Source: an uncultured Thermodesulfobacteriota bacterium (GTDB taxonomy: Bacteria; Desulfobacterota; WTBG01; CAIYCZ01). From it: a stretch of 64,000 nucleotides of DNA. The translations under genes were made by a program, and so were the position numbers. This document shows positions 1,860 to 63,124 of the stretch, one piece after another (the first letter of the stretch is position 1; each line of letters starts with the position of its first letter). The stretch lies in NCBI GenBank assembly GCA_964594075.1, contig CAZQKW010000004.1, forward strand, positions 38,171-102,170, in the 5' to 3' direction. A model generated the notes under the pieces. That model was not told the DNA's origin. It searched no databases and was given only the letters and a program-made list of their open reading frames with translations.

Positions 1860-2430
1860 ATGGGAAACAGCGCACTATCGCTGCCTTTATTACGTAAAAA
1901 TCATTCGACTCAAACCCGTTAATAATTTTAAAAAATATCATATAACCGTATCGGCCTCAAGCACTATAACACACCACAAACGTTACCCAAAATATTACCT
2001 TGTTGCGAGCGGAGGAACACCGAAGCGTTTTTTCTCCGCCGCACCACTATGCTCATGGGCCGGCAGCACACCCGGCGTGGACAGTTGTGTTGAAACAATG
2101 AAACAAACCTCCCGGTGCTCGTGTTTTGCTGTTTCTGTGTGCAACCCTCCCGGTTTCCTATCGTTTACAACATTTATCTGCATATTAGAAAGAATTTTTG
2201 GGGGAACATCCTGCTATGACACGATACGTCCCACCGCGTTATGACGGCCCGTGGAGAGGCAGGAAAACAATTCCCTGCCAATAACAATACCGGCTGACTG
2301 CTAATGATTTCATTGATGTGAGGAAATTAGGACTGAATGGGGCGGATGTATGACAGAATCGAAAAGGATCATTAAAAAATTTGCAAAGCAAGATGCGGGG
2401 CACCAGCGAACCGGTTACCCCGCGATCATG

Positions 2431-6993: not shown

Positions 6994-7353
6994 GGGGGCG
7001 AAAAGGGTTCGACGGGGGTTGTTGAAGCTTTAACTGCATACCGAGGTTCCTATCGCGGCTCGTAAAAAAGGTAGGATTAAACATAATCGCAGACGATTAT
7101 AATTACGCTCTGGCTGCCTAATCGCAGCCGGCGTTCCGCGTGTTTTCTCCTGCCGGACACAAAGGGGCGTCACTTCAGACAGGATAGCTCTTTTTCCTCT
7201 CTCAAGGGAATCTGAGCGAAACGTTTTGAGATAGCCTTTAAAGAATCCTGCTTCTGGGAGGCTTAAAAGGCGAACCCTAAAACAGAAGCTATGTATGTAG
7301 ATGTTAAAGTGGAAAGCTCTCGGACGGGGGTTCGATTCCCCCCGCCTCCACCA
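6994..7353 (+). ncRNA. ssrA: tmRNA (SsrA)
   Basis: The 5' end GGGGGCGAAAAGGGTTCGACGGGGGTTG and the 3' tRNA-like end GGACGGGGGTTCGATTCCCCCCGCCTCCACCA are tmRNA-like. An internal tag frame reads gca gac gat tat aat tac gct ctg gct gcc taa, giving ADDYNYALAA-stop. Confidence 0.85.
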
Positions 7354-18448: not shown

Positions 18449-21310
18449 ATGCGCAAAAATTTTTATCTTCCATCCAGCTTTTTCCCCGGGCGTTCCTGCC
18501 TGTTTAAAATACTCTGCACAATAATTCACGGTATCTTAATAATCAGTTCTACACCGGTTGGCGCATCCTGGGAATGGCTGAATCCCTTGCCTCAGGGGAA
18601 TAATCTCTATGGTGTCTGGGTTAATACGTCAAGCGATGTTTTTGCGGTGGGCGCAGCAGGAACTATTCTGCATTATAACGGCAGCGAATGGACCAGTATG
18701 GCAAGCGGTACGTCGCTATCGTTATATGCGGTCTGGGGGACTTCGGGAGCCCATGTGATAGCCGTGGGGGACAAGGGAACTATCCTGCGCTATAACGGCA
18801 GCTCTTGGAGCAGCATGACCAGCGGCACAACCGCAGCTCTTAATGCCGTCTGGGGCAGCGCGCCTCATAACGTGCTTGCGGTAGGCGCTAATGGCGCCAT
18901 CCTGCGCTACGACGGCAGCTCCTGGAGCGCCATGAACAGCGGGACCAACAAATCGCTGTATGGCGTATGGTGCAGCTCCGCTACCAGCGCATGTGCCGTG
19001 GGAGATGACGGCACTATTCTATATTACAACGGCAGCAAGTGGAACGGCATGAGCAGCGGCACGACAACCTGGCTCAATGCCGTCTGGGGCAGTTCTGACA
19101 GTAACATATTTGCGGTTGGCGCCTCCGGCACGATCCTGCGTTACAACGGCAGCTCCTGGAGCAGCATGACCAGCGGCACTTTTGAGTGGCTCAGCGGCGT
19201 GTGGGGCAAGTCTGACAGCGATGTGTTTGCAGTGGGCGATAACGGAGATATTTTGCATTACGACGGTCTTTCCTGGAGCACCATGGCCAGCCCCTCAAAC
19301 GCCTGGCTAAATGCGGTCAATGGAAGCGCAGACGGCAATGTGTTTACGGTGGGGTTGTCCGGTGAAATCCTCGCCTTTGACGGCAGCACCTGGAGCAGCA
19401 TGACCAGCGGCACGACAACCTGGCTCAATGCCGTCTGGGGCAGTTCGGGCAACGATGTGTTTGCGGTGGGCGATAGCGGCACCATCCTCCACTACGACGG
19501 CAGCTCTTGGAGCAAAATGATCAGCACTACGCTTAAACCTTTATACGCGGTCTGGGGCAGTGCAAACAACAACGTGTTTGCGGTAGGCGATTCAGGAATT
19601 ATCCTGCGCTATAACGGCAGCACCTGGAGCAAAATGACCAGCGGCACCAGCAAATCGCTGTATGGCGTGTGGGGCAGTTCGGGCAACAACATATTCGCAG
19701 TGGGTAATGGCGGCACGATCCTGCGTTATGACGGCAGCACCTGGGTCAGCATGAGCAGCGGCACAACTATCTGGCTCACTGCCGTCTGGGGCAGTTCGGG
19801 CAGCGACGTGTTTGCGGTGGGCGACAGCGGTACCATCCTCCACTATGACGGCAGTGCCTGGAGCAGCATGATCAGCAACTCATTAGCATTGCTGAGTGGT
19901 ATCTGGGGCAGTTCGGCCAGCGACGTGTTCGCAGTGGGCGATAGCGGCGCCATTCTGCACTATGATGGCAGTATCTGGAGCGCCATGGCAAGCGGCACCA
20001 CCGCATGGCTTAAAGCAGCCTGGGGAGTTTCCGGCACTGATGTCTATGCCGTGGGAACCTCGGGCATTATTCTTCGCTTTGACGGCGGCACCTGGGTCAG
20101 CATGTCCTCACCCACAGCAAAGTCCCTTATGGGTATCTGGGGCATGGCTCAAGCAGATCTGTTTGCTGTGGGTGAAGGAGGCACCATTCTTCACACTATA
20201 GACAGCGGCGGCAGTAATACCACCACAGCCCCGTCAACCACTACCAGTATCGCAGATACCACCACCACAGAGCCAACCACGACGACCAGCATAGAATCCG
20301 GCCCATCAACAACAACGACCGAGCCGTCAACCACCTCCAGCAGCGTCGAACCATCCACTACGACAACAACCGCTATTTCCGGGGTGAGCATTGTCAATAT
20401 TACGCAGGACTGGTCAGGGGCAAGTGATGTAACCCTCACCTGGGAAAGCAGCGTGGGGCAGAGCTATTCCATCTTGCTGAAAGATGAATTCAGCGGCTCA
20501 TTCATCGCCGTGGATACGGTTGCCGGAAATCAGGGCACCACCTCCTGGACTGATAATGGCGTTTGGCCTGGCGGAACGCACCCTTCAACCGTTTCGCAGC
20601 GTTACTACAAAGTTTCCGCAAGCGGCATAGAGTCGCACAACACGGTCGGCATCTACCGCATCACCGTGCAGGAAGGCATGAATCTCATATCCCTACCGCT
20701 CATACCGTTCCGATCAGACCTGGTGAATGTGATAGGAAGCCAATTGACGGGCGCGCCAAATGAAGGGGACGCCGACCGCCTCTGGGTATGGAATGGAAAC
20801 AATTACGAATTTGCCTGGCTGGTGGAAGGCGTGGGACCACCCTATGACGGAACGTGGTACACCGGTAATGCCGAAACCGCGGTTACACTGGGCGCCGACC
20901 GCGGCGCATGGGTGCAGGTGCGGCCAGGACACGGGACGCAAACGGTCTATATCGCAGGTGAAGTTGCCGCAGCAGCACGTATTATTCCGCTGGCAACCGG
21001 CATGAATCTGGTGGGAAGCAGTTACCCAGTTGCGGTGCCGCTGGGCGACCAACAGAGCGATGACAGCAATCTGTGGGAAAGCGGGGCAACCGGTGCAGAT
21101 AATGAAGGAGATGCAGACCGGGTGTGGAGCTGGAACGGATCACATTATCAGTTCCACTGGCTGGTGGACCACGTCAATGCAACGCTTAACGGAACGTGGT
21201 ATTCGGGAAACAGCCCCAGCCCGCTCGCTCTTGAACCGGGGAAAGGATACTGGGTGCAAATCCGCGCCAATCATGCGGGTTTTACCTGGACCTATCCCAA
21301 ACCATATTGA
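18449..21310 (+). CDS. large secreted repeat protein: ~14 x 40-aa Asp-box/BNR-like beta-propeller repeats, Thr/Pro-rich linker, FN3-like segment, duplicated C-terminal ~90-aa domain
   Basis: The repeat unit is L.AVWGSS..DVFAVGD.GTILHYDGS.WS.M.SGT; the DGSxWS part resembles the sialidase Asp-box SxDxGxTW. The linker reads TTTAPSTTTSIADTTTTEPTTTT. The C-terminal duplication is NEGDADRxWxWNGxxYxFxWLV...GTWYxGN...WVQxR. Confidence 0.8.
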   Translation: MRKNFYLPSSFFPGRSCLFKILCTIIHGILIISSTPVGASWEWLNPLPQGNNLYGVWVNTSSDVFAVGAAGTILHYNGSEWTSMASGTSLSLYAVWGTSGAHVIAVGDKGTILRYNGSSWSSMTSGTTAALNAVWGSAPHNVLAVGANGAILRYDGSSWSAMNSGTNKSLYGVWCSSATSACAVGDDGTILYYNGSKWNGMSSGTTTWLNAVWGSSDSNIFAVGASGTILRYNGSSWSSMTSGTFEWLSGVWGKSDSDVFAVGDNGDILHYDGLSWSTMASPSNAWLNAVNGSADGNVFTVGLSGEILAFDGSTWSSMTSGTTTWLNAVWGSSGNDVFAVGDSGTILHYDGSSWSKMISTTLKPLYAVWGSANNNVFAVGDSGIILRYNGSTWSKMTSGTSKSLYGVWGSSGNNIFAVGNGGTILRYDGSTWVSMSSGTTIWLTAVWGSSGSDVFAVGDSGTILHYDGSAWSSMISNSLALLSGIWGSSASDVFAVGDSGAILHYDGSIWSAMASGTTAWLKAAWGVSGTDVYAVGTSGIILRFDGGTWVSMSSPTAKSLMGIWGMAQADLFAVGEGGTILHTIDSGGSNTTTAPSTTTSIADTTTTEPTTTTSIESGPSTTTTEPSTTSSSVEPSTTTTTAISGVSIVNITQDWSGASDVTLTWESSVGQSYSILLKDEFSGSFIAVDTVAGNQGTTSWTDNGVWPGGTHPSTVSQRYYKVSASGIESHNTVGIYRITVQEGMNLISLPLIPFRSDLVNVIGSQLTGAPNEGDADRLWVWNGNNYEFAWLVEGVGPPYDGTWYTGNAETAVTLGADRGAWVQVRPGHGTQTVYIAGEVAAAARIIPLATGMNLVGSSYPVAVPLGDQQSDDSNLWESGATGADNEGDADRVWSWNGSHYQFHWLVDHVNATLNGTWYSGNSPSPLALEPGKGYWVQIRANHAGFTWTYPKPY

Positions 21311-23414: not shown

Positions 23415-26021
23415 TCACTGGTGCACCTTTATTCCGAACGTGCTAAAGATTGTCTTATTCTGCATATCGCGTTTGAGCCTGCTGAGGTCCTCCTTGAGGG
23501 CAGGACTTGCCTGATTCTTCAGAGCGTCTATCAACGCAACAGTTTCTTGTATGGTGCCTTTTGATATTACGGTCTTTCGCTTTGTAAGAAAAGCTTCTGC
23601 AACCGGCATAATTTTCCGGATAAGGCTTTGTGCCCTGTTTTTCATTCCCTGATCAGCAGCAAGAATGGCACTCAGTTCAGAAGCATTTTTATAATACAGC
23701 CCGACATAATAACCCCCCAATCCATTCTTTCCGGCCAGACGGTTTCTCACCCCGCGTAATTTTGTTAAATCTTTGCTGTTTTGCCCAAGAACGGTTTCGG
23801 CAGGGCAAATCGAAGGTATCGTCGTAGTTGTCGTGGGGGTTTTTGATAACTCTACCGATGAGCAAAAAACATAATCCAATACGATTCCAGGATCATTGGT
23901 AGTGAGTTCAATAGCGTATGTTCCTGCTCCTAAATACCTATTCATAGTGGCAATAAATGGATACGAATCATCGCATTTGGAGGCAGTCAGTGCTGCTTCA
24001 GCGGGAGTGTTTCCTTCGTACAGATAAAGACATAGCCCTTCCTGTTCAGACGTGGCGTCTAAAACAATGATCGTCGGATTGATTAAGGTAAAATAGAAAC
24101 GATCAGCATAGTGTGCATCTTCATAATGAACACTTGCCCAGTCAGACTTTCTCAGGCCGCCTTCATAAGCGTAGGAAGAACATTCAGCCTGAGTTAATGG
24201 CACTGATGAAATGATACTGTAATCTGTTGCTACTTTGCGGTCCTCGGTTGTCAGCTCAATAGTATAGGTTCCCGCTCCCAAATACTTGTTAATCTTGGCA
24301 ATGTATGGATATGCGTCTTTGCAGTTTGAGGTTATTAATTCGGCATTAGAGGGGTCACTCCCGTTATAAAGATACAAGCACAAGCCATCCTGCTCAGATG
24401 CAGCATCAACAACAAGAACCGTGGGACTGGTTAATGTAATCGTATAGAGGTCGGTATAGTGCGCCTCAGCATAATGGACGCTGAGACAATCAGGTTCCTG
24501 AAGTGTTCCCGGATAGGTATATACCGTGCTTTCAACCTGACTCAATTCCACCGACGAACGAAACGTATATTCCAATGAGATCTTTGGATCGTCGGTGGTG
24601 AGTTCAATAGAGTAGGTCCCCGCGCCTAAAAATTTGTTCACCTTTGCTACAAAAGGATAGGTGTCGTCACAGCTTGAGGCGATGAGCTCCGCACCGGACG
24701 GCTTGCTCCAGTCATACACATAGAGGCAGACACCCTCCTGTTCGGACGTGGCGTCTAAAACAATGTTGGTGGGGGTAGTGAGAGTAAACGTATAGAGGTC
24801 GGTATAGTGCGCATCATCATAATGGACGCTGGGCCAATCGGACTCTTCAAGATTACCCTGATACGTGTAGGAAGAACAACCAACAGGGCTTAACTCAATT
24901 GATGAGCGAAACACATAATCCAATGAGATTTTGGGATCATCGGTGGTAAGTTCAATGGTGTAGGTCCCGGCGCCCAGAAATTTGTTCGTCTTGGCTATAA
25001 ACGGATACGTATCTTTACAATCAGAACCAATAAGCTCTGCACCGGACGGCTTGCTCCAGTCATACATATACAGGCACACGCCATCCTGTTCAGAGGTTGC
25101 ATCTAAAACGACGTTGGTCGGGCTGGTCAAGGTAAAAGTATACAGATCGGTATAGTGTGCATCGGTGTATTGAATACTCAAACAATCAGCATCTTGAAGT
25201 TTTCCCGGGTAGGTGTAGGATGCACATTCAACCTGGCTAAGCGGCACTGACGAGACAAATACATAATCTGGGGAAACCTTTGGATCATCAGTGGTGAGTT
25301 CTATGGAATACGTGCCTGCCCCTAAAAACTTGTTTATCTTGGCAATAAAGGGATAGTTGTCATTACAGTTTGAGGCAATTAATTCTGATCCTGACGGCTT
25401 GCTCCAGTCATACACATACAGGCACAGGCCTTCCTGTTCTGATGCAGCGTCTAAAACAACAACCGTGGGAGTCGTCAAGGTGAAAGTGTAGAGATCGGTA
25501 TAGTGTGCATCGGAGTAGCGGATACCCAGACAATCAGACTCTTCAAGTTTTCCCGGATAAGAATAGGAAGTGCACGCAACCTGAGTCAGTTCTACCGGGG
25601 CGTCAAGAATATACGACAATGACACCTTGCGGTCATTGGTGGTGAGTTCAACAGAATAGGTTCCCGCGCCTAAGGGTATGGTATCTCTCAGTGGTATCCG
25701 TGGCGCAAAAGGATATACATCATCACAGGTATTGTAAATTAACTCAGCACCCGACGGGTTGCTCAGGTCATACAAATACAGGCACATGCCCTCCTGTTCA
25801 GACGTAGCGCTTAAATAAATATTCGCAGGAGCAGTCAGGGTGAATGTAAAAAGATCTGTATAATGCGCGTCAGCGTAGCGGATACTGAGGCAATCAGGCT
25901 CTTCAAGGGTGCCATTTATAGTGTTACTCTGGGCAGGGATAATGAATAAAGATAGGCTCAGAATAATAAATAGAACGGAAAACTGAATGAGTTGTAATAT
26001 TTTTTTCAATGCTTTTTTCAT
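23415..26021 (-). CDS. secreted protein with 7 tandem ~123-aa PPC-like (pre-peptidase C-terminal) domains, Thr-rich linker, shared C-terminal domain
   Basis: Repeat unit DCLSIRYxDAHYTDLYTFTLTxP...DATSEQEGxCLYxYDWSKPSGAELIAS.C.D.YPFIAK.NKFLGAGTYSIELTTDDPK. Linker TPTTTTTIPS. C-terminal domain LYYKNASELSAILAADQGMKNRAQSLI. Has a signal peptide. Confidence 0.8.
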   Translation of the reverse strand: MKKALKKILQLIQFSVLFIILSLSLFIIPAQSNTINGTLEEPDCLSIRYADAHYTDLFTFTLTAPANIYLSATSEQEGMCLYLYDLSNPSGAELIYNTCDDVYPFAPRIPLRDTIPLGAGTYSVELTTNDRKVSLSYILDAPVELTQVACTSYSYPGKLEESDCLGIRYSDAHYTDLYTFTLTTPTVVVLDAASEQEGLCLYVYDWSKPSGSELIASNCNDNYPFIAKINKFLGAGTYSIELTTDDPKVSPDYVFVSSVPLSQVECASYTYPGKLQDADCLSIQYTDAHYTDLYTFTLTSPTNVVLDATSEQDGVCLYMYDWSKPSGAELIGSDCKDTYPFIAKTNKFLGAGTYTIELTTDDPKISLDYVFRSSIELSPVGCSSYTYQGNLEESDWPSVHYDDAHYTDLYTFTLTTPTNIVLDATSEQEGVCLYVYDWSKPSGAELIASSCDDTYPFVAKVNKFLGAGTYSIELTTDDPKISLEYTFRSSVELSQVESTVYTYPGTLQEPDCLSVHYAEAHYTDLYTITLTSPTVLVVDAASEQDGLCLYLYNGSDPSNAELITSNCKDAYPYIAKINKYLGAGTYTIELTTEDRKVATDYSIISSVPLTQAECSSYAYEGGLRKSDWASVHYEDAHYADRFYFTLINPTIIVLDATSEQEGLCLYLYEGNTPAEAALTASKCDDSYPFIATMNRYLGAGTYAIELTTNDPGIVLDYVFCSSVELSKTPTTTTTIPSICPAETVLGQNSKDLTKLRGVRNRLAGKNGLGGYYVGLYYKNASELSAILAADQGMKNRAQSLIRKIMPVAEAFLTKRKTVISKGTIQETVALIDALKNQASPALKEDLSRLKRDMQNKTIFSTFGIKVHQ

Positions 26022-45713: not shown

Positions 45714-47105
45714 TTAACACTCCGGTTCACACTGGGGCTGGCCGCAGCCGCCGCAACCGGGGTCAACGTCGCACACATCGCCAACGCCGTCGTTATCCGC
45801 ATCCATTTGTTGCGCATTGCAGTTATCCGGGCAATTGTCGCAGCTATCGGGCACGCCGTCACCGTCCCGGTCTGGAAACACACAGTCACCCAGAGCAAAC
45901 GGGGTGGCAGGAGGAATAATAACATCCACCGGAAGGGAACTGTCAATTATTGTATTATTGCCAAGCTGCCCTTCAGAATTATCGCCCCAGGTTTTCATGG
46001 TGCAGCCCGCAGGAATCGCCGCAGTATGAAAATTTCCGGCGCCAATGCTGATGGCAGCGCCGATGTTCAAAACCGCTACCGGCACTTTTCTCAAGGTCTG
46101 GGTGCCGTCGCCAAGCTGGCCATCGGAATTCAGACCCCAGGCCCATACCGTGCAGTCGCTCCTGAGCGCTGCTGAATGATACTTTCCCGCAGCGACCGCC
46201 TCGACATTACTTAACGTGCTGACTTTTACTGGCATGGTTTTATTGGTGAGGGAATTGATGCCAAGCTGCCCGCTTTCATTGAGCCCCCATGCCCAGACGG
46301 TTTTGTCAGCCTTGATAGCCAGATTATGCCACCCGCCGGCTGCAAGCGCCACAACGCCGGTAAAGCCACCGCCGCCGGCATCAAGGACCTGCACCGGAGC
46401 TAATCGGGTAGTGGTGGTATTGTCTCCAAGCTGTCCGTATTTATTAACACCCCATGCCCAGACCGTGCCGTCGCTTTTAAGCGCAATGCTGTGAAATGTG
46501 CCGGCACCTATTGCTACGACCCCGCTCAGCCCGCTCACCTGAGTTGCTTTGGTTTTGTCTCGGGTTGACCCGATGCCAAGCTGCCCATAATTATTGCGTC
46601 CCCACGCCCAAACCGTGCCGTCACTCTTTAATGCCAGCGAGTGATATTCGCCGCCTGCGATCGCAACCACCCCGCTCAAACTGCTTACGACCACCGGTGT
46701 TGTTTTGTCTTTTGTGGTGCCGTCGCCAAGCTGCCCATAAAGATTTGATCCCCATGCGCGGACGGTGCCATCGCTTTTAAGCGCCAGCGTGTGAAATGAA
46801 CCGGCAGCAACTGCGACAACACTGGTCAAACCGCTCACCTGCACGGGTGTCAGTTTGTCTATGACTGTCCCGTCGCCAAGCTGGCCGGAGGCATTTGCAC
46901 CCCACGCCCAGACCGTGCCGTCGCTTTTAATGCTTACTGTGTGCCATTCCCCGCCTTCCATCATGGGCTCTGACTGCGCCCATGCCGGGCCGGCTGCAAA
47001 AATGCCCAGCACGAAATAAAAGGACATGATTATGCAGCACATTGTTTTTAGTTGAATGGACCTGCTATGTTTCATAAACGGTGCCCTCCTTTGAAAGGGG
47101 TACAT
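45714..47105 (-). CDS. secreted RCC1-repeat beta-propeller protein with C-terminal thrombospondin type-3 Ca-binding repeats
   Basis: Seven units of AWGxNxYGQLGDGT (RCC1). C-terminus DRDGDGVPDSCDNCPDNCNAQQMDADNDGVGDVCD (TSP3-like). Has a signal peptide. Confidence 0.8.
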   Translation of the reverse strand: MYPFQRRAPFMKHSRSIQLKTMCCIIMSFYFVLGIFAAGPAWAQSEPMMEGGEWHTVSIKSDGTVWAWGANASGQLGDGTVIDKLTPVQVSGLTSVVAVAAGSFHTLALKSDGTVRAWGSNLYGQLGDGTTKDKTTPVVVSSLSGVVAIAGGEYHSLALKSDGTVWAWGRNNYGQLGIGSTRDKTKATQVSGLSGVVAIGAGTFHSIALKSDGTVWAWGVNKYGQLGDNTTTTRLAPVQVLDAGGGGFTGVVALAAGGWHNLAIKADKTVWAWGLNESGQLGINSLTNKTMPVKVSTLSNVEAVAAGKYHSAALRSDCTVWAWGLNSDGQLGDGTQTLRKVPVAVLNIGAAISIGAGNFHTAAIPAGCTMKTWGDNSEGQLGNNTIIDSSLPVDVIIPPATPFALGDCVFPDRDGDGVPDSCDNCPDNCNAQQMDADNDGVGDVCDVDPGCGGCGQPQCEPEC

Positions 47106-53788: not shown

Positions 53789-53816
53789 TTGACAAATTAA
53801 AAAAATATGTTATAAA
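53789..53816 (+). promoter_or_regulatory. near-consensus sigma70 promoter (TTGACA-N16-TATAAA)
   Basis: TTGACAaattaaaaaaatatgtTATAAAat. Confidence 0.45.
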
Positions 53817-53822
53817 ATAGTT

Positions 53823-53896
53823 GAGGGTGTGAAACCCCTCATGTTCCCCTCTTTTTTTACCCCTGGAACGAGTAACATCGTCCAGGGGTTTTTTTA
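53823..53896 (+). ncRNA. candidate small RNA (~75 nt) bounded by promoter and terminator
   Basis: After the promoter: 5' hairpin GAGGGTGTGAAACCCCTC, a U-run, then a terminator hairpin CCCCTGGAACGAGTAACATCGTCCAGGGG followed by TTTTTTT. No ORF. Confidence 0.35.
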
Positions 53897-54002
53897 TGAC
53901 CCACAACCATGGGCACCGTGATATTCTCCACACCCGCAAAGGTTATACACCCGACCTCCCCTAACCTGTCCTCAGAGGGCCTGTGTCGTAATGGCATTAG
54001 AT

Positions 54003-54028: not shown

Positions 54029-54247
54029 TAATTGCGACTCAGCCTCCTATCAAGGAGGGGAAAAGTTATCACGTCGGCGCATGGTGCCCCGGGCAGACAG
54101 TGCACCATGCAACGGAACCTGCCGCTGCGCAGGTGCTGAGCGGTGGGGTTATGGCTCAGGAAAACCACCGTGCGCTGATAGTTCACGATGCTTTTTTAAT
54201 TAAAAACGCACGGGGAACATAGATGAAGTCGTCTTGCCGCAAAATTT

Positions 54248-55217: not shown

Positions 55218-55352
55218 CTTCGCACGTCCCCCCACAACCTGGTGCCACCGCTATTGTGTTGTTAATAATCCACCGCATAGAATTAAGGCCCGTTAAACCT
55301 TGCCAAAAAAACCGGACTTTCCCCATAATATTTTATCGCTGGCGATGAAGAA

Positions 55353-55559
55353 GCGCCTGGGGGTTTTTCTCTGCCGCACCAATCTGCTCATCCGCCGGCA
55401 TCACGACCCCGGCACCGTGCGTATTCTGCCCCGGGCAGGCAGCCGGTAGAGCCTTCGTCACCGGCAATGCAGAGGGTCTGGGGACTGCATAATATACCAG
55501 CACCTGCCGTGTTCCTGGCACAGACGGTTGTGTTGTGGCAATGAAAAACCCCCAGACGC
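55353..55559. mobile_element. ~205-bp MITE-like element with 17-bp terminal inverted repeats (copy 1, complete)
   Basis: Ends GCGCCTGGGGGTTTTTC ... GAAAAACCCCCAGACGC. The interior is about 90 percent identical to the reverse complement of 62956..63124. Confidence 0.6.
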
Positions 55560-55803
55560 TTCTGTTTTGATCTTCCCCATTATTCCCCGTGCGTTTCGGT
55601 GTTTTCGTGCAGGTTACCCGAATTGCAGGGCTAATTTTTGCGGAACGTCCCGCCCAAAAAAATTCCTTGACAGAATTATTTAAAAAAATTAATATTCCGT
55701 TATCGGAATTTCCGTAATTGAAAATATTGCGTTCCAGGACGTTTCGGCAAACAGTATTTTTGTTTAGCATCACTCCCAAAATTTTTCCTTAACGGGCTGT
55801 GCC

Positions 55804-56256
55804 ATGACCAAAAAAGTTGACGCGCTTGACACCAAGCTGTTGATTGTCAGAGATTTCATTGATGAGTTTTACAATAAAACCATATTTCAAAAAGGGAGCA
55901 GCAATGCCGCATCGGATTTGACGCCTTCTGTCATAAAAGCCCTGTTTGCCTTTTCTGATGAAAACCAAGCCTATCCCATCGGCGAGCTGGGAAGATATGC
56001 GCGGGTCAAAAGTTCTACCATTACCGATATGGTTGACCGTCTGGAACGTGACGGGATTGCGGAACGGTTTAAGGAAGACGGCGACCGGCGCGTGATCAAG
56101 GTGCGGCTCACTGCAAAAGGCAAAAAGCTGCGCCGAGAATTCAGCCAGAAACGGCGGCAGGAGTTCGCAGCGCTCTTTGCAAAATTGGACCCAAGCGAAC
56201 AGGAGCAGCTTCTCCATCATCTGGAAGGCGCGTATCAGATATTAAAAAAGATTTAA
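55804..56256 (+). CDS. MarR-family transcriptional regulator
   Basis: Winged-helix segment ITDMVDRLERDGIAERFKEDGDRRVIKVRLTAKGKKL. Confidence 0.8.
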   Translation: MTKKVDALDTKLLIVRDFIDEFYNKTIFQKGSSNAASDLTPSVIKALFAFSDENQAYPIGELGRYARVKSSTITDMVDRLERDGIAERFKEDGDRRVIKVRLTAKGKKLRREFSQKRRQEFAALFAKLDPSEQEQLLHHLEGAYQILKKI

Positions 56257-56289
56257 CGTGATACTGCTGGATAAAAGGAAAGGTAAACA

Positions 56290-57312
56290 ATGGACATAGA
56301 TTTGACACAGACCGGATTCTGGGCGCTCATGGTGGCGACCTTTACCCTTGCCGCAACGCATACCGTTTCTCCCGATCACTGGTTCCCCTTCATTATGGTC
56401 GGCAGGGCAAACAAATGGAAACTGTCCTGGGTGCTGCTGCTGGCACTTCTGGCCGGAATAGGGCATGTGGGAACCTCGGTTGCTATTGGCTTGATAGGCG
56501 TATTTGCTGAAAAGGGCATGTCAAAAAGTGTCGCGGAATTTCTTGAAAATGCCACCCCGCTGCTGCTGATAATTTTTGGGTTTGGGTATGCCGGATACGC
56601 GTTTTACAAGCAACGGGTTGGTGCCCACGGCCATGCGCACGGCATACCGATTCTAAACAAATGGCTGGGCATTGATCCCCATGCCTATGCTCTGCCGCAT
56701 CATGAACACGGCACCCACGATCACAGCCAGGATCAAGTGGCGGGCATTCACATCGGCAGGGTCAATTTATATATCCACAATATGGAGTTGCACATAACGG
56801 TAGCCCATGATGATCATATCCATGGCTATGATGCGACTACTGAAGAAGACCACAACCATAAGCATTATCACGCAGATATTTTGCATGAACATAAGCATGT
56901 GCATACCCTCAAGGGACTGGTTCATGACCATGGCGCTGAGCACGCTCATCCGCAAGGGGAGCATCAGCCTCACGTCCATACGCAAGACCTGCACCATACC
57001 CGCCATGAAACTGCAGAACAACAGCTTAAGCATAAACGGGCGGGCTGGGGGCTGGTGGCGATCCTGGGATTAACACCCTGCATTGCATTGCTTCCCCTCA
57101 CGTTTGCCGCGGTGAAATACGGGTCTCTGGCTGTCATTCTGGTAAACATATCGTTTGCCGTGGGCACGTTGGGCACTATCCTGCTGTTTACCTGGCTCGG
57201 GTATCTGGGATTGTCCTGGATTAAACTTGAATTTTTTGAAGAATACGGCGATGTGATTGCCGGCGTCATTATCGGCCTGCTGGGAGTTGCAACAAAAGTT
57301 TTTGAGTTGTGA
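56290..57312 (+). CDS. nickel/cobalt transporter, NicO/NiCoT-RcnA family with His-rich loop
   Basis: N-terminal HTVSPDH (HX4DH signature), a central loop with more than 30 His, and 6-8 TM helices. Confidence 0.7.
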   Translation: MDIDLTQTGFWALMVATFTLAATHTVSPDHWFPFIMVGRANKWKLSWVLLLALLAGIGHVGTSVAIGLIGVFAEKGMSKSVAEFLENATPLLLIIFGFGYAGYAFYKQRVGAHGHAHGIPILNKWLGIDPHAYALPHHEHGTHDHSQDQVAGIHIGRVNLYIHNMELHITVAHDDHIHGYDATTEEDHNHKHYHADILHEHKHVHTLKGLVHDHGAEHAHPQGEHQPHVHTQDLHHTRHETAEQQLKHKRAGWGLVAILGLTPCIALLPLTFAAVKYGSLAVILVNISFAVGTLGTILLFTWLGYLGLSWIKLEFFEEYGDVIAGVIIGLLGVATKVFEL

Positions 57313-57355
57313 ACTGACAGGCGTATCACCCTATTAAAACAGAGAGGAAGATGGT

Positions 57356-58111
57356 ATGAGCGACATAGTTACCGATCTTGGCTTTGACTCCAAAAGCCTG
57401 TGGCAGCCAAAGGGATTTGATCCCCATCCCTTTCCTGAACGCACCTGGCCGCTGCTCAAGGAATTAAACCTGAAACGGCTGACCGAGGTGGAGGGCGAGG
57501 ATTTAACCCCCATCCAGGGAATGATCAAGCAGCCCATGGCAGAGGGCACCTTTAGAAATTTTTGCAACGAGAAGATTGAAAAGCTTGCCCTCATGTGGCT
57601 CCTGATCTCAAAGAGCATTGCCGGCGGGAGCTGGGTGGGCTGGCCCAATGATGGGTATGACTTCCCGGCGCTAATTATTGCCTGGGAAGAATCAAAAAAA
57701 CGGCTGCACATTATTATTGACGTCATGCCGATTGTGGACTGCGTGGAATATGAGTGGTACCGGGAGAAATACCTTGACGGCATTGAACCGGTCTATAACG
57801 AATATAAGGATTTAATCGGCCCCAATTCCACCTATCGCTGGTTCCGCGCCATGCAGGGTCCCTATCATATTTTTGACAGCCCGAATGAAAAGCGGGAGCG
57901 CGCCCTGCAGTGCGAAATAGAGTATATTAAATACTGGGTTGATGTGGTAAAAAAAGCCGAATCCGTCGCCGATGCCGCCTATCGAGAATACGCGATAAGG
58001 CGCAAGCGGATTTTAATGACGCAGTTGCGGCAGCGCGACCCGCTGGGTTCGGTTCTGATGCGAACTCTGGGACCGGAACTGGGCAAGAAGAGCGTGGTGG
58101 GATATACATAA
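57356..58111 (+). CDS. ferredoxin-dependent bilin reductase (FDBR)-like protein, divergent paralog A
   Basis: EKIEKLALMW (compare the FDBR FRKxHLE motif) and GWPNDGYDFPALII (compare PcyA FPEPLYGLPLFGCD). About 250 aa. The canonical catalytic His/Glu/Asp are not conserved. Confidence 0.5.
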   Translation: MSDIVTDLGFDSKSLWQPKGFDPHPFPERTWPLLKELNLKRLTEVEGEDLTPIQGMIKQPMAEGTFRNFCNEKIEKLALMWLLISKSIAGGSWVGWPNDGYDFPALIIAWEESKKRLHIIIDVMPIVDCVEYEWYREKYLDGIEPVYNEYKDLIGPNSTYRWFRAMQGPYHIFDSPNEKRERALQCEIEYIKYWVDVVKKAESVADAAYREYAIRRKRILMTQLRQRDPLGSVLMRTLGPELGKKSVVGYT

Positions 58112-58165
58112 AAAGAGGAAAAAGTTAAAGGAAAAAAGGTTAAAAGGAAAAAAGGAGTTATAGCA

Positions 58166-58582
58166 ATGCCATCCATGATAGAGATTATGCGAAAAGGGGC
58201 TGATCTGGTCAACAATGACGAAGAGTTCAAAGCCCAGATGGTTGAATTAGACGGCGACATCATTTTCTGGCGGTTTGAAGACGATCAGCCGGCGGTAACC
58301 ACCCGGCTTGACAAAGGCGTCCTGGTAGTGGAAGAGGGAGAACATCCTGGTTCACAGGTCGGCATGAAGCTCAAGGCCAAAGTGCTTCTGGATGTGATAG
58401 ATAATTCTCTTGAGGCAAAAATGATGTACACCTTTACCGAACTGGTTAAGGGCGACGTTGAACGTGCCCGCCATCATGTGTTTGCCCTCGTGCCATACAT
58501 CTACGGGATGCAGGATTACTACGACAGCGATGAAGGATTCAGAAGCATGGTGGTGGATAAAAAGCGGCAGCTCGGAGGATAA
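58166..58582 (+). CDS. hypothetical protein (138 aa), possibly small-ligand-binding (SCP2-like?)
   Basis: No clear motif. It sits inside the FDBR-like/ferredoxin cluster and its stop overlaps the ferredoxin start. Confidence 0.4.
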   Translation: MPSMIEIMRKGADLVNNDEEFKAQMVELDGDIIFWRFEDDQPAVTTRLDKGVLVVEEGEHPGSQVGMKLKAKVLLDVIDNSLEAKMMYTFTELVKGDVERARHHVFALVPYIYGMQDYYDSDEGFRSMVVDKKRQLGG

Positions 58583-58815
58583 TGGCTGTGGATGTTCATG
58601 AGCACAGCATTGTTATTGATGAAGATAAATGCGTCGGCTGCGGAATCTGTATCGAGTATTGTCATGTAGATGCGATCCGCATCAATGAAGAACGCAACGT
58701 GGTAGAAGTGGTTGACCTTGAGAGCTGCATTGAATGCCATAGCTGTCAGCAGCGGTGCCCGCAAAAAGCCATTATGGTCTACCCGCAGATTGAAGAAGTC
58801 CTGCCGGAACTTTAA
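58582..58815 (+). CDS. 2[4Fe-4S] ferredoxin
   Basis: CVGCGICIEYC and CIECHSCQQRCP. Confidence 0.8.
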   Translation: MAVDVHEHSIVIDEDKCVGCGICIEYCHVDAIRINEERNVVEVVDLESCIECHSCQQRCPQKAIMVYPQIEEVLPEL

Positions 58816-58827
58816 GGACAGGGGCGC

Positions 58828-59067
58828 GTGCACATGGAGATTAAATTCATCGTAGATACAGAGCGCTGTCTGGGAGCAGATGCCTGCGGCAACCTTTGCG
58901 CCCGCATCTGTCCGCCGGATATTATTGACTATGCTGATGAAAACGGAAAGAAAGTCCCCCGGGTAAATGATATGGAGCTGTGCATGAAAGATCACGGATG
59001 CCAGAACAACTGTCCGGTGAAAGCGATTACCATTCTTCCGCCGCAGGAAGAAGGACGGAATTTTTAA
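58828..59067 (+). CDS. ferredoxin-like Fe-S protein with atypical Cys spacing
   Basis: CLGADACGNLCARICPP and CMKDHGCQNNCP. Confidence 0.6.
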   Translation: MHMEIKFIVDTERCLGADACGNLCARICPPDIIDYADENGKKVPRVNDMELCMKDHGCQNNCPVKAITILPPQEEGRNF

Positions 59068-59099
59068 CAACTTATCCCATTTAAAACAGGAGGCACACC

Positions 59100-59879
59100 A
59101 TGAAGGAATATCATCTGGAGAAAGAGGTGGGGTTCAGGTGCGACACCTGGCCTGCCAAGAATGTTCCCGAGATTAGGCCGTTTCCCGAGGAATGCTGGGA
59201 AATCCTGCGCACTCTTGAGGTAAAGCCGTTGCGCGGTATGTATCAGGGCTATAATATGGATTTGCTGCTGGAGAATCTTGATTCGCCGATGGCAAAAGGC
59301 GCGGTGCGGGTGTTTGAGTCGGAAAAAATAGAAAAAGTCTGCCTCTGGTGGCAGGTGCTTTCAGGGCGTTCTATCTCCGGCGCGGTCATTGGATTCCCCC
59401 GCGATGATTACGACTTTCCGGTAATGCTTATTGACTGGGATGAAGGACGCGGCCCGGGCCACGGCATGGTTGACCATATGCCCCTGTGCGATCTGGTGCT
59501 CCATGAGGACTACCGCATCAAGTACCTTGATAAACTGGATAATACGTTCCGGGAATATTATGATATAATCGGTCCGCCGTCGCTGCACGTCTGGTTTAGA
59601 ACGCTCACCGGACCGTATTACAGTTTTTTCAGAACTCAGGCGGGCGGCACGCCGGAGTATCGCCAGCGCATTTTGAATCTGCCGCTCCGCTACCTTCAGA
59701 TGTGGGCGGATACGGTTAAGGAAGCGCAGCCGGTCACCGATCCGGCGCACCGTGAATACTGCATCAAGCGCAAACGCGTGCTTCAGGAATGGCTGTTTGT
59801 CCGTGACCCGGTAACCTCGGTGATGCTGCGCTGTTATGGAAAGGAAATCGGCTCGCTGGTAATGAAGGGTCTGTCATAG
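59100..59879 (+). CDS. ferredoxin-dependent bilin reductase (FDBR)-like protein, divergent paralog B
   Basis: VRVFESEKIEKVCLWW and GFPRDDYDFPVMLIDWDEG. Co-linear with paralog A (EYxDxIGP, WFR, GPY, REY.IxRKR). Confidence 0.5.
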   Translation: MKEYHLEKEVGFRCDTWPAKNVPEIRPFPEECWEILRTLEVKPLRGMYQGYNMDLLLENLDSPMAKGAVRVFESEKIEKVCLWWQVLSGRSISGAVIGFPRDDYDFPVMLIDWDEGRGPGHGMVDHMPLCDLVLHEDYRIKYLDKLDNTFREYYDIIGPPSLHVWFRTLTGPYYSFFRTQAGGTPEYRQRILNLPLRYLQMWADTVKEAQPVTDPAHREYCIKRKRVLQEWLFVRDPVTSVMLRCYGKEIGSLVMKGLS

Positions 59880-59938
59880 AAAACGCGCTTACAGGTGAAC
59901 ACTATGAGCGCGCAGCGTGCCTTTTCCAGGAGAACCCC

Positions 59939-60217
59939 ATGCCCAAAATAACCGAAGACCAAATTGTTCAGATTGAAATTAAAATTGATGAAGAAAAATG
60001 TGTCGGCTGCGGAACCTGCATCTCGGTGTGCCCGGTTAATCTGCTTGAATTAAAGGTGGTGGGCACCAAGAAAAAAAGTTGTGCGCCGGATCAGAGTTTC
60101 TGCCTGAAATGCCATATGTGCGAATTCCACTGTGGATATGAAGCCATTAAAGTGTTTCCGCCGTTTGAAGGGCAGCAGCCCACCGATCAGGCAAAAGTGC
60201 CGATGCGCCATCGCTAA
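59939..60217 (+). CDS. 2[4Fe-4S] ferredoxin
   Basis: CVGCGTCISVCP and CLKCHMCEFHC. Confidence 0.8.
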   Translation: MPKITEDQIVQIEIKIDEEKCVGCGTCISVCPVNLLELKVVGTKKKSCAPDQSFCLKCHMCEFHCGYEAIKVFPPFEGQQPTDQAKVPMRHR

Positions 60218-60295
60218 CCGAACCCGTGACCTCCTTGACCGCTGATTACAACCCGCCATGTTTCCGCAGCGTGCGCCGAGGATAAAAGGATAGCG

Positions 60296-61729
60296 ATGCG
60301 CGTTCTGCTCATTCAGCCGCCGATGTTTCATCAGCAGGTGCAGCTTTCCCCCAATCTGGGGCTTGCCTCCATTGCTGCGGTGCTTGAACAGGACGGTGTG
60401 CAGGTAAGGGTAGTGGATGCGGCGGCAGAAGGGCTATCGTATGACCGTATTCTGGAAAAGATTCGCGCGTTCCAACCGCACATCATTGGCGCCGGCGGGC
60501 AGACGCCGGTCAGCCACCGCGCGCGCATCATTTTTCAGCGAACCAAACGGGAAATCAGCCGCGACATCATAACAATTGCCGGCGGGCCGCACTTCAGCTT
60601 CACCGACCGGGAATCGTTACAGGAATGCCAAGACCTTGATATTGTGGTGCGCGGCGAAGGCGAAGCGACCATCAGCCATCTCTGTAAAACGCTTGAGTCC
60701 GGCGCCCCCCTTGCCACGGTTCAGGGCATAACCTTTCGGGACGAAACCGGCTCAATAGTGCGCAATCCCGACCGCGAGCCAATTGCCGATATTGACTCCC
60801 TGCCCTTCCCTGCCTGGCATCTGTTCCCCGTAGAAAAATACCACTGGGTGGGAAACCGGCTGCTGGCAACCTCTTCCTCGCGGGGTTGCCCGTTCAACTG
60901 CCCCTACTGCATCACTTGGAAAGTGCATAAGGGCGTGCGGCAGAGGAAACCGGCGCGGATTGTTGAAGAAATGGTCTGGGTAAAAAAGAACTTTCAACAC
61001 GACACGTTTTTCTTTCAGGACGATGCCTCATTTCTGTCCCGCGAGCAGATGGAAGGATTTCTGGACGAGCTGGAAAAATGCGGAGAGAAGCTCTATTGGT
61101 ATTATGAGACCAGGGAAGATGTTTTTCTGGGCTATCGCGATCTGTGGCAACGCATGAAGCGCAACGGCCTGTTCAAAATTGTTTTCGGCCTGGAGACGCC
61201 AGACCCGGAGATGCGGAAAAAATTCGGCAAACAGCCGTTTGACAGCCGGGCCGTCGTGCAGATGCTTGATATTCTGGAACATGAGCTTGATATTATGGTT
61301 TCCGTGTATCTGCTCTTTGGTCTTCCGGAGGATACCGCGGAGTCCTTGAACGCAATTCTTGAATATGGCAAATATCTGTATCCGGACCATTGTTCTTTTA
61401 TCGTCGGGTCCATGGCTACGCCGTTTCCGGGAACCGATATGTATGAAGAACTCAAAGCCCGGGATATGCTGACCAGCTATAACTGGAAAGACTACGGGTT
61501 TGGCAGGTCGGTCATCAAAACGGCGGTTTCGCCGGAAAAGCTCCAGGCGGTTTTTAAGGGTTTCTGGATAAAAACCTATGTGCGGCCGAAAGCATTTTTA
61601 AAACAGTTCCAGTTTTTCATCTCCGGCAACCGCTTCCGCAGGGCGATGGCCAAGCAGTATATTAAAATGGCGATAGAGATGGCTTCCGATGTCAAGAAAA
61701 TGAGCGGCGAAGCCGATGAGGAATTTTAA
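60296..61729 (+). CDS. B12-binding domain radical SAM enzyme (class B; BchE/methyltransferase-like)
   Basis: N-terminal cobalamin-binding Rossmann segment (RVLLIQPP...VVDAA) and radical SAM motif SSRGCPFNCPYC (CxxxCxxC). Confidence 0.85.
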   Translation: MRVLLIQPPMFHQQVQLSPNLGLASIAAVLEQDGVQVRVVDAAAEGLSYDRILEKIRAFQPHIIGAGGQTPVSHRARIIFQRTKREISRDIITIAGGPHFSFTDRESLQECQDLDIVVRGEGEATISHLCKTLESGAPLATVQGITFRDETGSIVRNPDREPIADIDSLPFPAWHLFPVEKYHWVGNRLLATSSSRGCPFNCPYCITWKVHKGVRQRKPARIVEEMVWVKKNFQHDTFFFQDDASFLSREQMEGFLDELEKCGEKLYWYYETREDVFLGYRDLWQRMKRNGLFKIVFGLETPDPEMRKKFGKQPFDSRAVVQMLDILEHELDIMVSVYLLFGLPEDTAESLNAILEYGKYLYPDHCSFIVGSMATPFPGTDMYEELKARDMLTSYNWKDYGFGRSVIKTAVSPEKLQAVFKGFWIKTYVRPKAFLKQFQFFISGNRFRRAMAKQYIKMAIEMASDVKKMSGEADEEF

Positions 61730-61817
61730 AAAAATCATACCTCATGATTCAGAATCAGAATAATCAGATCAGACGGAAAAAAATCTTCGCCGCTGAACAC
61801 GCGGCAGAAAGGATTCC

Positions 61818-62828
61818 ATGCCATTAGATGTTTATGCCTTTGGCAGCGCGCTGGTGGACATTCAGCTTGCTGTTGATGACACCCTGCTGGCAGAACTTGA
61901 GCTGCAGCGCGGGAATATGTATCTGACCGATCGGGTTCGCCAGGAACAGGTCTTGGAAAAAATTCTTGGCGGCCGCATAACCGACCTCGGCGCTCTGGGT
62001 GATCGGGTGAACCTTGCAGCCGGCGGCAGTGCCGCAAATACGGTTTACGGCATTGCCCAGCTTGGCGGGACAGCGGCGCTCTGCGGCAAGGTAGCGTCTG
62101 ATCCCTTTGGCCATTTCTACATTAGAGATATTCAGCAGGGCGGCGTGCTGTTCAATCAAAAAATGGTGGACGGCATGACCGGCACCTGTATCGTTCTCAT
62201 TTCCGACGACGCGCAGCGCACCATGCTTACCTGTCTTGCGGTATCCAGCGAGATAACGTACGAGGATCTCAATGAGGATTATTTAAAAAACAGCACCTAC
62301 CTGTATATTGAAGGCTATCTTTTTGACAGCGCGGTTGCAACCGAGACGCTGCTGCGCGCGATTGCCACGGCTAAAAAACACCAGGTAAACGTTGCGCTCT
62401 CAGCTTCAGATTCATTTTGTATAGAGCGGCACAAGGACCAGTTTCTGCACCTGGTAAAAAATGATGTTGACCTTTTATTTGCCAACGCCCAGGAAGCGCA
62501 GGCGCTTACCGACACCGACAGCCTTGAGGAAGCATGCCGCGTGCTGCCCCGCTGGTGCCGGCAGTGCGCCATCACTGATGGAGCCCGCGGCTCAACCCTC
62601 CTGTTTAACGGCGTGCGCCTTAAAATCAATCCCTACCCGGTCATCGCCATAGATACCACCGGCGCCGGAGACGCCTATGCTGCCGGACTGCTCTTTGGCC
62701 TTACCAATGGCTATTCACTGGAACAGAGCGGCAAAATCGCCAGCTTCTTTTCCTCGCGGGTGGTATTCCAGTTGGGCCCGCGGTTTGCCGGCGATATAAG
62801 ACAAGAAATAAAAGAACTGGAGCTCTAA
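61818..62828 (+). CDS. PfkB-family carbohydrate/nucleoside kinase
   Basis: GGSAANT and C-terminal DTTGAGDAYAAG anion-hole motif. Confidence 0.8.
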   Translation: MPLDVYAFGSALVDIQLAVDDTLLAELELQRGNMYLTDRVRQEQVLEKILGGRITDLGALGDRVNLAAGGSAANTVYGIAQLGGTAALCGKVASDPFGHFYIRDIQQGGVLFNQKMVDGMTGTCIVLISDDAQRTMLTCLAVSSEITYEDLNEDYLKNSTYLYIEGYLFDSAVATETLLRAIATAKKHQVNVALSASDSFCIERHKDQFLHLVKNDVDLLFANAQEAQALTDTDSLEEACRVLPRWCRQCAITDGARGSTLLFNGVRLKINPYPVIAIDTTGAGDAYAAGLLFGLTNGYSLEQSGKIASFFSSRVVFQLGPRFAGDIRQEIKELEL

Positions 62829-62955
62829 TCAAAGATATTTGAAATGTATTTACCGGCCAGGTTTCATGACCTTCTCCCCATATAGCCCTGATTTCAGAAA
62901 ACCCGCATGAGAACAGCAATACGGAATGGGTAACAACGGGGAATTGAAAACTCCA

Positions 62956-63124
62956 GCGCCTGGGGGTTTTTCGTCGCCAGCAACACACCCGTCCGTGCCG
63001 CGAACACAGCAGCTGCCGTTATAGACTGCAGTCCCGAGCCCCCGGCATCAACAGTGGCGAAGGCTCTACCGGCTGCCTGCCCGGGGCAGAACAGGCACGG
63101 TGCCGGGGTCGTGATGCCACCGGG
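62956..63124. mobile_element. MITE-like element copy 2 (opposite orientation, truncated at one end)
   Basis: Starts with the same 17-mer GCGCCTGGGGGTTTTTC and is homologous to the reverse complement of copy 1. The distal TIR is missing. Confidence 0.55.

Follow-up and report, generated by a model that had tools for sequence, protein, structure and literature searches.

The intergenic region between a cold-shock protein (CSD) gene and a marR gene of an uncultured Thermodesulfobacteriota bacterium (GenBank assembly GCA_964594075.1, contig CAZQKW010000004.1) contains a pair of inverted repeats, and the DNA enclosed by them recurs in the opposite orientation beyond the operon headed by marR. What kind of element is this, where does it begin and end, and how did it come to lie beside these genes? 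We addressed these questions in the window, i.e., the whole stretch of 64,000 nucleotides analysed here (positions 38,171 to 102,170 of the contig), and in related contigs, which are designated by L numbers. A first-pass annotation had described a non-autonomous MITE of about 205 bp at 55353–55559, bounded by 17-bp terminal inverted repeats and accompanied by a truncated second copy at 62956–63124.

The inverted repeat is real. The 17-mer GCGCCTGGGGGTTTTTC is found at 55353–55369 and its near reverse complement GAAAAACCCCCAGACGC, with 1 mismatch, at 55543–55559; the 17-mer occurs once more at 62956–62972, giving 3 matches in all against 0.01 expected by chance. The pairing is longer than the annotated 17 bp, extending over two arms of 33 nt which, in the window copy (copy 1), are identical to one another at 28 of 33 positions. 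The inverted partial copy (copy 2) is equally real, and it lacks the other arm, as had been claimed. Its similarity to copy 1 had been overestimated, at about 90%: alignment of 55392–55559 with the reverse complement of 62956–63123 yields 141 identical positions out of 169 (83.4%), or 87% over an 85-nt stretch of the core, values that lie well above the 70% proposed as a refutation threshold. Both copies are intergenic, copy 1 lying between the CSD and MarR genes and copy 2 between those of a PfkB kinase and an aldehyde:ferredoxin oxidoreductase (AFOR). The open reading frames that span them had been dismissed as artefacts, and this view is supported, given that the ORF at 55333–55779 matches no Pfam family and has as its sole database relatives other copies of the same repeat.

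The boundaries of the element, on the other hand, had to be redrawn. No copy is bounded at 55353 and 55559, no direct repeats flank these two points, and the homology with every other copy runs farther on both sides, by approximately 40 nt to the left and 90 nt to the right, up to a different set of terminal inverted repeats; the 17-bp repeats are actually part of the internal 33-bp inverted repeat and do not lie at the limits of the unit. For instance, the homology between copies 1 and 2 continues past the 3′ arm (65% over 93 nt, to 55652 and 62867, respectively), and the real extent of copy 2, which is truncated at its 5′ side, is 62867–63123. The limits of the unit were set by aligning copies located in unrelated flanks (L012, L014–L018, L025, and L028), which have a common unit of 331–342 bp, corresponding to 341 bp in the window. 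The lesson is that a pair of inverted repeats in one copy is insufficient to delimit a MITE, the true ends having come only from copies in different flanks. The resulting anatomy is given in Table 1.

Table 1. Features of the element, of its further copies and of other repeats and genes in the window (positions are those of the window).
Feature	Position	Strand	Basis or remark
Copy 3, diverged, both ends kept, ~100 nt of core gone	1976–2213	+	nhmmer; right terminal inverted repeat at 2193–2213
tmRNA gene	6994–7353	+	215 bits against RF00023
REP-like 26-nt repeat	15354, 23199, 28328, 40449, 42059, 47157, 47197, 54003, 54472	both	
Long tandem repeats	18611–20080, 23884–25673, 45959–46930		periods of 117, 348, and 150 nt; 60–85% identity
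Copy 4, decayed relic	54075–54222 (approximate boundaries)	+	weak nhmmer match, E 0.003–0.075
Left target-site duplication CCAAAAAAA	55303–55311	.	abuts left end of element; 9-mer recurs at 55654–55662
MITE copy 1, full-length	55312–55652	+	341 bp (possibly 342 if base 55653 is included)
Outer left terminal inverted repeat CCGGACTTTCCCCATAATATT	55312–55332	+	pattern search with terminal-repeat consensus
5′ arm of internal inverted repeat	55349–55381	+	33 nt, 85% complementary; holds 17-mer 55353–55369
G+C-rich core between internal arms	55382–55530	+	149 bp; inverted relative to outer frame in L022, L023/L024
3′ arm of internal inverted repeat	55531–55563	+	arm pairing; holds 55543–55559
Outer right terminal inverted repeat (reverse complement CGGGACGTTCCGCAAAAATTA)	55632–55652	-	pattern search with terminal-repeat consensus
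Right target-site duplication CCAAAAAAA	55654–55662	.	same 9-mer as left
Promoter-like site of marR operon, TTGACA-17-TAATAT	55667–55695	+	target DNA, not element; 13–14 nt beyond right end
Copy 2, 5′-truncated	62867–63123	-	profile positions 81–332, nhmmer E 2.2e-46; alignments

At the redrawn limits the homology among copies breaks off suddenly; the left limit is marked by CAGGAC or CAGGGC and the right one by GTCCTG, and the two ends are inverted repeats of each other. These terminal inverted repeats are approximately 20 bp long (consensus CAGGACTTTCCCCAAAAAGTT, of the type CAGGAC...GTCCTG), and a search with their consensus pattern gave 3 matches in the window as compared to 0.06 expected. 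The ends, CAGGACTTTCCCC... and ...GGAACGTCCTG, lie at 55312–55332 and 55632–55652 in the window. The left end reads CAGGAC in L007 and L012 and CAGGGC in L014, L021, and L030; the two ends match each other at 15 of 20 positions in L012, and in L025 and L028 the agreement is nearly complete over some 20 nt.

Using a profile of full copies, nhmmer matched positions 2–340 to 55313–55651 with an E-value of 2.6e-125. Copy 2 is devoid of both the left terminal repeat and the 5′ internal arm, and its degenerate right end reaches approximately 62867. Two further copies were found in the window. Copy 3 is matched in two blocks, 1981–2074 (profile positions 6–100) and 2071–2211 (positions 203–339), and is flanked by CTATAACAC and CTATGACAC. 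Copy 4 is a relic that has retained its internal arms (GCGCATGGTG/CACCGTGCGC), some of the core and a sequence, GGGGAACATAG, similar to a right end; its orthologue in L007 (positions 620–767) is matched more strongly, with E-values of 1.3e-11 and 6.5e-9 using the A2 and the full-length profile, respectively.

Altogether, the family is represented at 13 loci of the window and of related uncultured genomes by full, truncated and internally deleted copies, a count that includes the four window copies and partial relics. Outside the window, full copies occur in L012, L014–L018, L025, and L028, copies with a flipped core in L022 and L023, and a truncated one in L030. The neighbouring genes differ among the 13 loci, and so do the direct repeats that abut the element: CCAAAAAAA in the window, TTATCGCC in L012, TTATTGACCT in L014, and TCAAATCTTT in L025, together with a pair in L028 (ATTTTTTAA/ATATTTTAA) and one around copy 3 (the flanks quoted above). 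When all junctions were scored by a uniform test, in which two of them need an offset of 1 nt, the six independent loci scored between 6 and 10, whereas 42 control pairs, each made of the left flank of one locus and the right flank of another, did not exceed 3. The length of the duplication varies: it is 8 bp in L012, 9 bp at three loci (window copy 1, copy 3, and L028) and 10 bp at the other two, L014 and L025.

An empty site was found in L020 (NCBI GCA_900174595.1). Here, the same genes that flank the L014 insertion, coding for a CitMHS transporter (90% identical) and a Na+/H+ exchanger (Na_H_Exchanger), are separated by a 210-nt spacer which contains a single ATTGACCT and no element; subtracting the element and one copy of the repeat from L014 makes the two contigs colinear. 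At the same locus, L021, L019, L026, and L027 carry the insertion with a common internal deletion of approximately 170 nt. The CitMHS/Na+/H+ exchanger locus is thus a series from empty to full (L014–L018) to deleted. The uninserted csp-marR spacer would be expected to read ...CCTTGCCAAAAAAATTCCTTGACAG..., with a single CCAAAAAAA. Relic pieces consisting of the left part or of the right end only were also noticed in L015 (468–564), L021 (19202–19301), L022 (6134–6208), and L020 (around 19200–19300), where they sit upstream of other genes; they point to a long history of insertion and decay in this lineage.

No open reading frame is consistent across copies. Several frames are nearly open on both strands owing to base composition; they shift between copies and run off the element, and a protein-coding gene was rejected on these grounds and for want of a Pfam match. 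The annotation of the 10 kb or so on either side of each copy shows neither a transposase nor a recombinase domain. Moreover, the approximately 300 kb of contig DNA examined contain no transposase, and no isolated element ends lie next to a transposase in any of the related contigs searched.

The relatives were searched for by scanning an exact 20-mer of the core in species-representative genomes and in 241 million metagenome records. The former gave no genuine match to the 20-mer, the 3 matches obtained being chance matches in high-G+C genomes, while the latter yielded two further loci only, the orthologous L007 and the new L012, plus 6 chance matches. Three scans of viral contigs gave nothing or one chance match (L029) to an 18-nt end pattern, and the plasmid collection holds no match to the element. 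More copies were found indirectly: gene callers assign spurious ORFs to the repeat, and a protein database search with these ORFs led to their contigs. In annotation, these repeats are present as hypothetical proteins in the JGI, ENA, and Logan gene calls. A literature search found no paper on MITEs of this uncultured lineage, in which such elements appear to be little described. We also noted that the nearest named homologues of a neighbouring transporter, with identities of about 60%, belong to Brocadia, Kuenenia, and MAGs of other Planctomycetota, a faint hint that the host might be akin to Brocadiales.

A non-coding unit with terminal inverted repeats has therefore been inserted at many sites, with duplication of 8–10 bp of the target each time. 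Each feature by which a MITE can be tested is found in this family, namely small size, lack of coding capacity, terminal inverted repeats, variable duplications, many contexts and an empty site. The classification of the first-pass annotation as a non-autonomous MITE is accordingly retained on the strength of the independent loci, the locus-specific direct repeats, the empty site and the decayed copies, while the anatomy it gave is replaced. In our preferred reading, to which we assign a probability of roughly 0.85, 55312–55652 is one copy of a 341-bp non-autonomous MITE that moved in trans, whose internal core has been flipped, and which was inserted at the edge of a promoter. Since the element encodes nothing, a DDE transposase encoded elsewhere would act in trans on the ~20-bp terminal repeats, and its staggered cut would cause the duplication of 8–10 bp of target. 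Copy 2 would then have lost the left 80 nt, and the copies at 1976–2213 and around 54075–54222 would be older and decaying. Both the trans-mobilization and the family assignment discussed below are deductions, as no autonomous partner was seen.

Which enzyme could be the mover? The sequence of the ends and the length of the duplication suggest one of the ISAs1 family. As known from ISfinder, the direct repeats of ISAs1-type elements measure 8–10 bp. The duplications found here, of 8–10 bp, agree with an ISAs1 direct-repeat length of about 10 bp, and the ends, whose terminal repeats are about 20 bp long, read CAGGGCTTTCCCC in L014 and L021, CAGGGCGTTCCCC in L030, or CAGGACTTTCCCC. Members of this family have terminal repeats of 14–22 bp starting with CAGGG and 10-bp direct repeats (PMC11946415); one of them, ISArsp11, has the left inverted repeat CAGGGCTGATGC... 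and a 10-bp direct repeat (PMC6305408). The first five bases of the element are CAGGG in L014, L021, and L030, CAGGA in L007, L012, L025, and L028, and CCGGA in the window copy. Unlike ISAs1, IS1358, and ISArsp11, the element is without a transposase gene, and its likeness to them is confined to the first 5–7 bases of the ends; given this short likeness and the fact that no partner transposase was found, the link to ISAs1 is a lead and not a membership.

The insertions show a relationship to promoters. In 6 of the 9 insertions with a readable end, a −35 hexamer of the form TTGAC(A/C), pointing away from the element, lies 4–14 nt beyond one end. For five of these six hexamers the distance is 11–14 nt, i.e., the duplication plus 3–5 nt, and five of the six are followed by a good −10 hexamer 17 nt further on. 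Such a hexamer is present within 16 nt at 2.4% of the window positions and at 3.2% of the positions in a crude non-ORF set, which gives a P of approximately 1e-8, or 2e-4 even when the background is set at 15%. The geometry seen at the marR promoter is repeated in L012, L025, L028, and L023. In L014 the −35 hexamer is located inside the duplicated target, and its presence in the empty site L020 identifies it as belonging to the host promoter. Furthermore, the homologous marR promoters of the window and of L028 have been hit at almost the same point by different subfamilies in opposite orientations, which suggests a hot spot. The duplicated targets are A/T-rich. This pattern would fit a preference for UP-element-like DNA, recognition of the hexamer, or the survival of only those insertions that are not disruptive. 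Under the preferred reading, the MITE would land at the upstream edge of sigma70-type promoters owing to a transposase that prefers A/T-rich or bent DNA near the −35 region, or the hexamer itself, and the survival of non-disruptive insertions would also contribute.

We regard as rather unlikely a more far-reaching view, in which this is a promoter-directed transposon whose transposase, or a host factor bound to the promoter, steers insertion to approximately 11–14 bp upstream of the sigma70 −35 hexamer, with the flippable core making it a mobile and reversible regulatory cassette. If so, each copy would bring a strong hairpin, which might serve as insulator or as terminator, together with fresh upstream DNA to the front of a gene. 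Should the clustering at promoter edges be mechanistic, it would be instructive as a bacterial case of transposition aimed at promoters, and regulatory variation could arise from it; the operon under MarR control next to copy 1 is one of the gene sets affected.

The internal inverted repeat deserves separate consideration. When the outer-left part, the core and the outer-right part were each given a profile of their own, all three lay on one strand in most copies. In L022 and in L023/L024, on the other hand, the core lies on the strand opposite to that of the outer parts, with the switch points within the arms, which implies at least one inversion of the 149-bp core between the internal repeats. 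Most likely, the flip occurred by recombination between the arms during the history of the family. Within each copy the two arms match at 85–91% over 30–39 nt and co-vary, in that the positions differing between subfamilies are changed in both arms (variants AGAAGCG(C/T)CTGGGGG, AGAGCACCTGGGGG, CG(C/T)GTC(T/C)GGCGGG, and GCGCATGGGGG). Behind this co-variation there may be selection, either for pairing or for a protein-binding site, or else intramolecular gene conversion between close inverted repeats; in the mechanism favoured here, either selection or such conversion would keep the arms complementary. A further observation is that 55572–55596 (CTTCCCCATTATTCCCCGTGCG), shortly after the internal hairpin, resembles the left end of the element at 55316–55338 (CTTTCCCCATAATATTTTATCG) as a direct repeat, so that the element may stem from the joining or partial duplication of a smaller unit.

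The good inverted repeats that bound the inner unit of about 215 bp, i.e., the unit described at first with its 17–33-bp repeats, raise the question of whether this is a small MITE nested in another repeat. Its occurrence in both orientations relative to the outer frame would agree with this, as would the relic at about 54075–54222, which keeps the internal arms and has no recognizable outer left end. We nevertheless consider nesting quite improbable: at every recovered locus the inner part is accompanied by the outer parts and joined to them at the same points, none of these loci has an inner unit standing alone between duplications of its own, and no direct repeats flank 55349 and 55563. Moreover, an inversion between the arms is far more likely than two independent nested insertions at exactly one point.

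Could the copies be genes for structured small RNAs, or cis-regulatory leaders, each with its own promoter and a hairpin serving also as terminator, that have been duplicated rather than transposed? The predicted fold is strong on both strands (−102 and −105 kcal/mol, z-scores of −4.6 and −5.2), the arms co-vary, the element is more conserved than its flanks and usually lies upstream of a gene in the same orientation, and a promoter-like site, TTGCCA-18-CATAAT, is located just upstream at 55300–55329. Such folding, however, is what any long imperfect palindrome gives. No Rfam family matches the element even at E ≤ 10, and in RNAalifold the six full copies receive a covariation penalty of +4.6, with compensatory changes in 2 of 107 pairs and many pairs broken in L014 and L015. 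The fold of copy 3 is no better than that of shuffled sequences (z = −0.4), and the L021 lineage has lost half of the hairpin at an otherwise conserved locus. In the light of these results, the co-variation of the arms lends no good support to a functional RNA. The L025/L028 subfamily has no −10-like hexamer, and duplication would explain neither the locus-specific flanking duplications nor the empty site; small-RNA genes or leaders are very improbable. Known RNA families had been considered separately and were discarded, Rfam at its gathering thresholds giving only the tmRNA in the window and nothing on the element; a conserved RNA structure was likewise rejected on the RNAalifold result and on the behaviour of copy 3.

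We give equally little credence to an inverton, in which a site-specific invertase would flip the core as a phase-variable switch that the MITE frame has spread to promoters. Both orientations of the core do exist among copies, the arms are kept complementary, and the element adjoins promoters. However, comparison of assemblies reveals a single core orientation at every locus sampled more than once (window/L001/L007; L014–L018/L021/L026–L027; L023/L024), neither strand of the core has a predicted promoter-like site, and the ~10 kb around each copy are free of annotated recombinase domains. Finally, copies 1 and 2 are inverted and bracket the 7.2-kb marR-to-pfkB operon, but it is scarcely credible that they mark the two ends of a composite transposon or of a segmental duplication, a possibility rejected on the orientation of the ends (those facing outward are left ends, and copy 2 has none) and because copy 1 is flanked on both sides by a target duplication of its own, and contradicted also by the single occurrence of the family at many other loci and by L007, which has the same arrangement plus an unrelated 2.7-kb insertion.

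The comparison between the window and its orthologue L007 reveals that the element is 96.8% identical, as compared to 91–92% for the flanking spacers and 91.2% for marR. This higher conservation could result from function, gene conversion or a consensus effect of assembly. Taken together with the co-variation of the arms, it could indicate a function beyond selfish spread, though gene conversion or consensus effects of assembly would produce just such a result. The short-read contigs L002 and L019 break inside the conserved core, and the window is identical to L001 (JGI contig Ga0394875_0000172) over 18,197 nt except for seven substitutions, all of them within 55447–55533. The seven differences are probably due to repeat-induced blending during assembly or to gene conversion between copies; the contig breaks and the restriction of the differences to the core are the behaviour of a multi-copy repeat in metagenome assembly. 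Caution is thus needed, in that the core of any one copy may be a blend, the local consensus is unreliable and short-read assemblies are broken. A diversity-generating retroelement was rejected, no reverse transcriptase being found nearby and the differences, both among copies and between the window and L001, being mostly transitions and not adenine-specific.

Bacterial MITEs include the Correia elements of Neisseria, the ERIC/IRU elements of enterobacteria and the RUP elements of Streptococcus pneumoniae. The MITE described here resembles them in being a non-coding, highly self-complementary unit within their range of 100–400 bp, with terminal inverted repeats and a target-site duplication, that lies in intergenic DNA, often beside promoters, and whose copies decay by truncation and internal deletion. 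In sequence it is unrelated to Correia, ERIC/IRU, RUP and the other described families, and it has no match in Rfam, which holds several such repeats. Correia and RUP elements duplicate TA, unlike the 8–10 bp duplicated here, and a second, internal inverted repeat enclosing a core in both orientations is a further difference. In invertons, segments between inverted repeats are flipped by invertases, examples being fimS, hin and the capsule promoters of Bacteroides. The likeness to them lies in a segment of about 150 bp which is framed by 17–33-bp inverted repeats and occurs in two orientations; the difference is that these orientations are distributed between loci and never found at one, with neither a predicted internal promoter nor a nearby invertase. 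REP and REPIN elements, mobilized by RAYT transposases, are short, palindromic, intergenic and multi-copy as well, but they are much shorter than the element studied here and are without a target-site duplication. Overall, this is a new MITE family of an ordinary kind, unusual only in its flipped core and in its insertion at promoter edges.

Several other features of the window and of L007 were recorded. The operon headed by marR (55804–62828) has an unusual combination of genes, comprising two proteins weakly similar to ferredoxin-dependent bilin reductases, several small ferredoxins, a B12-binding radical SAM enzyme and the PfkB kinase. The insertion in L007 (2835–5500) places an extra 2.7 kb between marR and the next gene, at the equivalents of window positions 56256 and 56290; it contains an ORF of 225 aa that matches no Pfam family and a gene for a P-type ATPase (E1-E2_ATPase), both absent from the window, and its edges show neither transposase nor repeats. 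At 53789–53900 two hairpins lie within 100 nt downstream of a strong promoter-like site, TTGACA-18-TAAAAT, and the second hairpin (CCCCTGGAACGAGTAACATCGTCCAGGGG plus a run of T) looks like a terminator; this region, which could be a short sRNA or a leader, is kept in L007 at approximately 330–440. The REP-like repeat of 26 nt, GTCATTCTGARCGNNGYGAAGAATCT, which is unrelated in sequence to the MITE, is present in 9 copies in the window, on both strands and with none expected, and often extends to inverted pairs of 40–60 nt; it looks like a family of REP-type intergenic repeats. The long tandem repeats listed in Table 1 are presumably repeat domains inside large coding regions.
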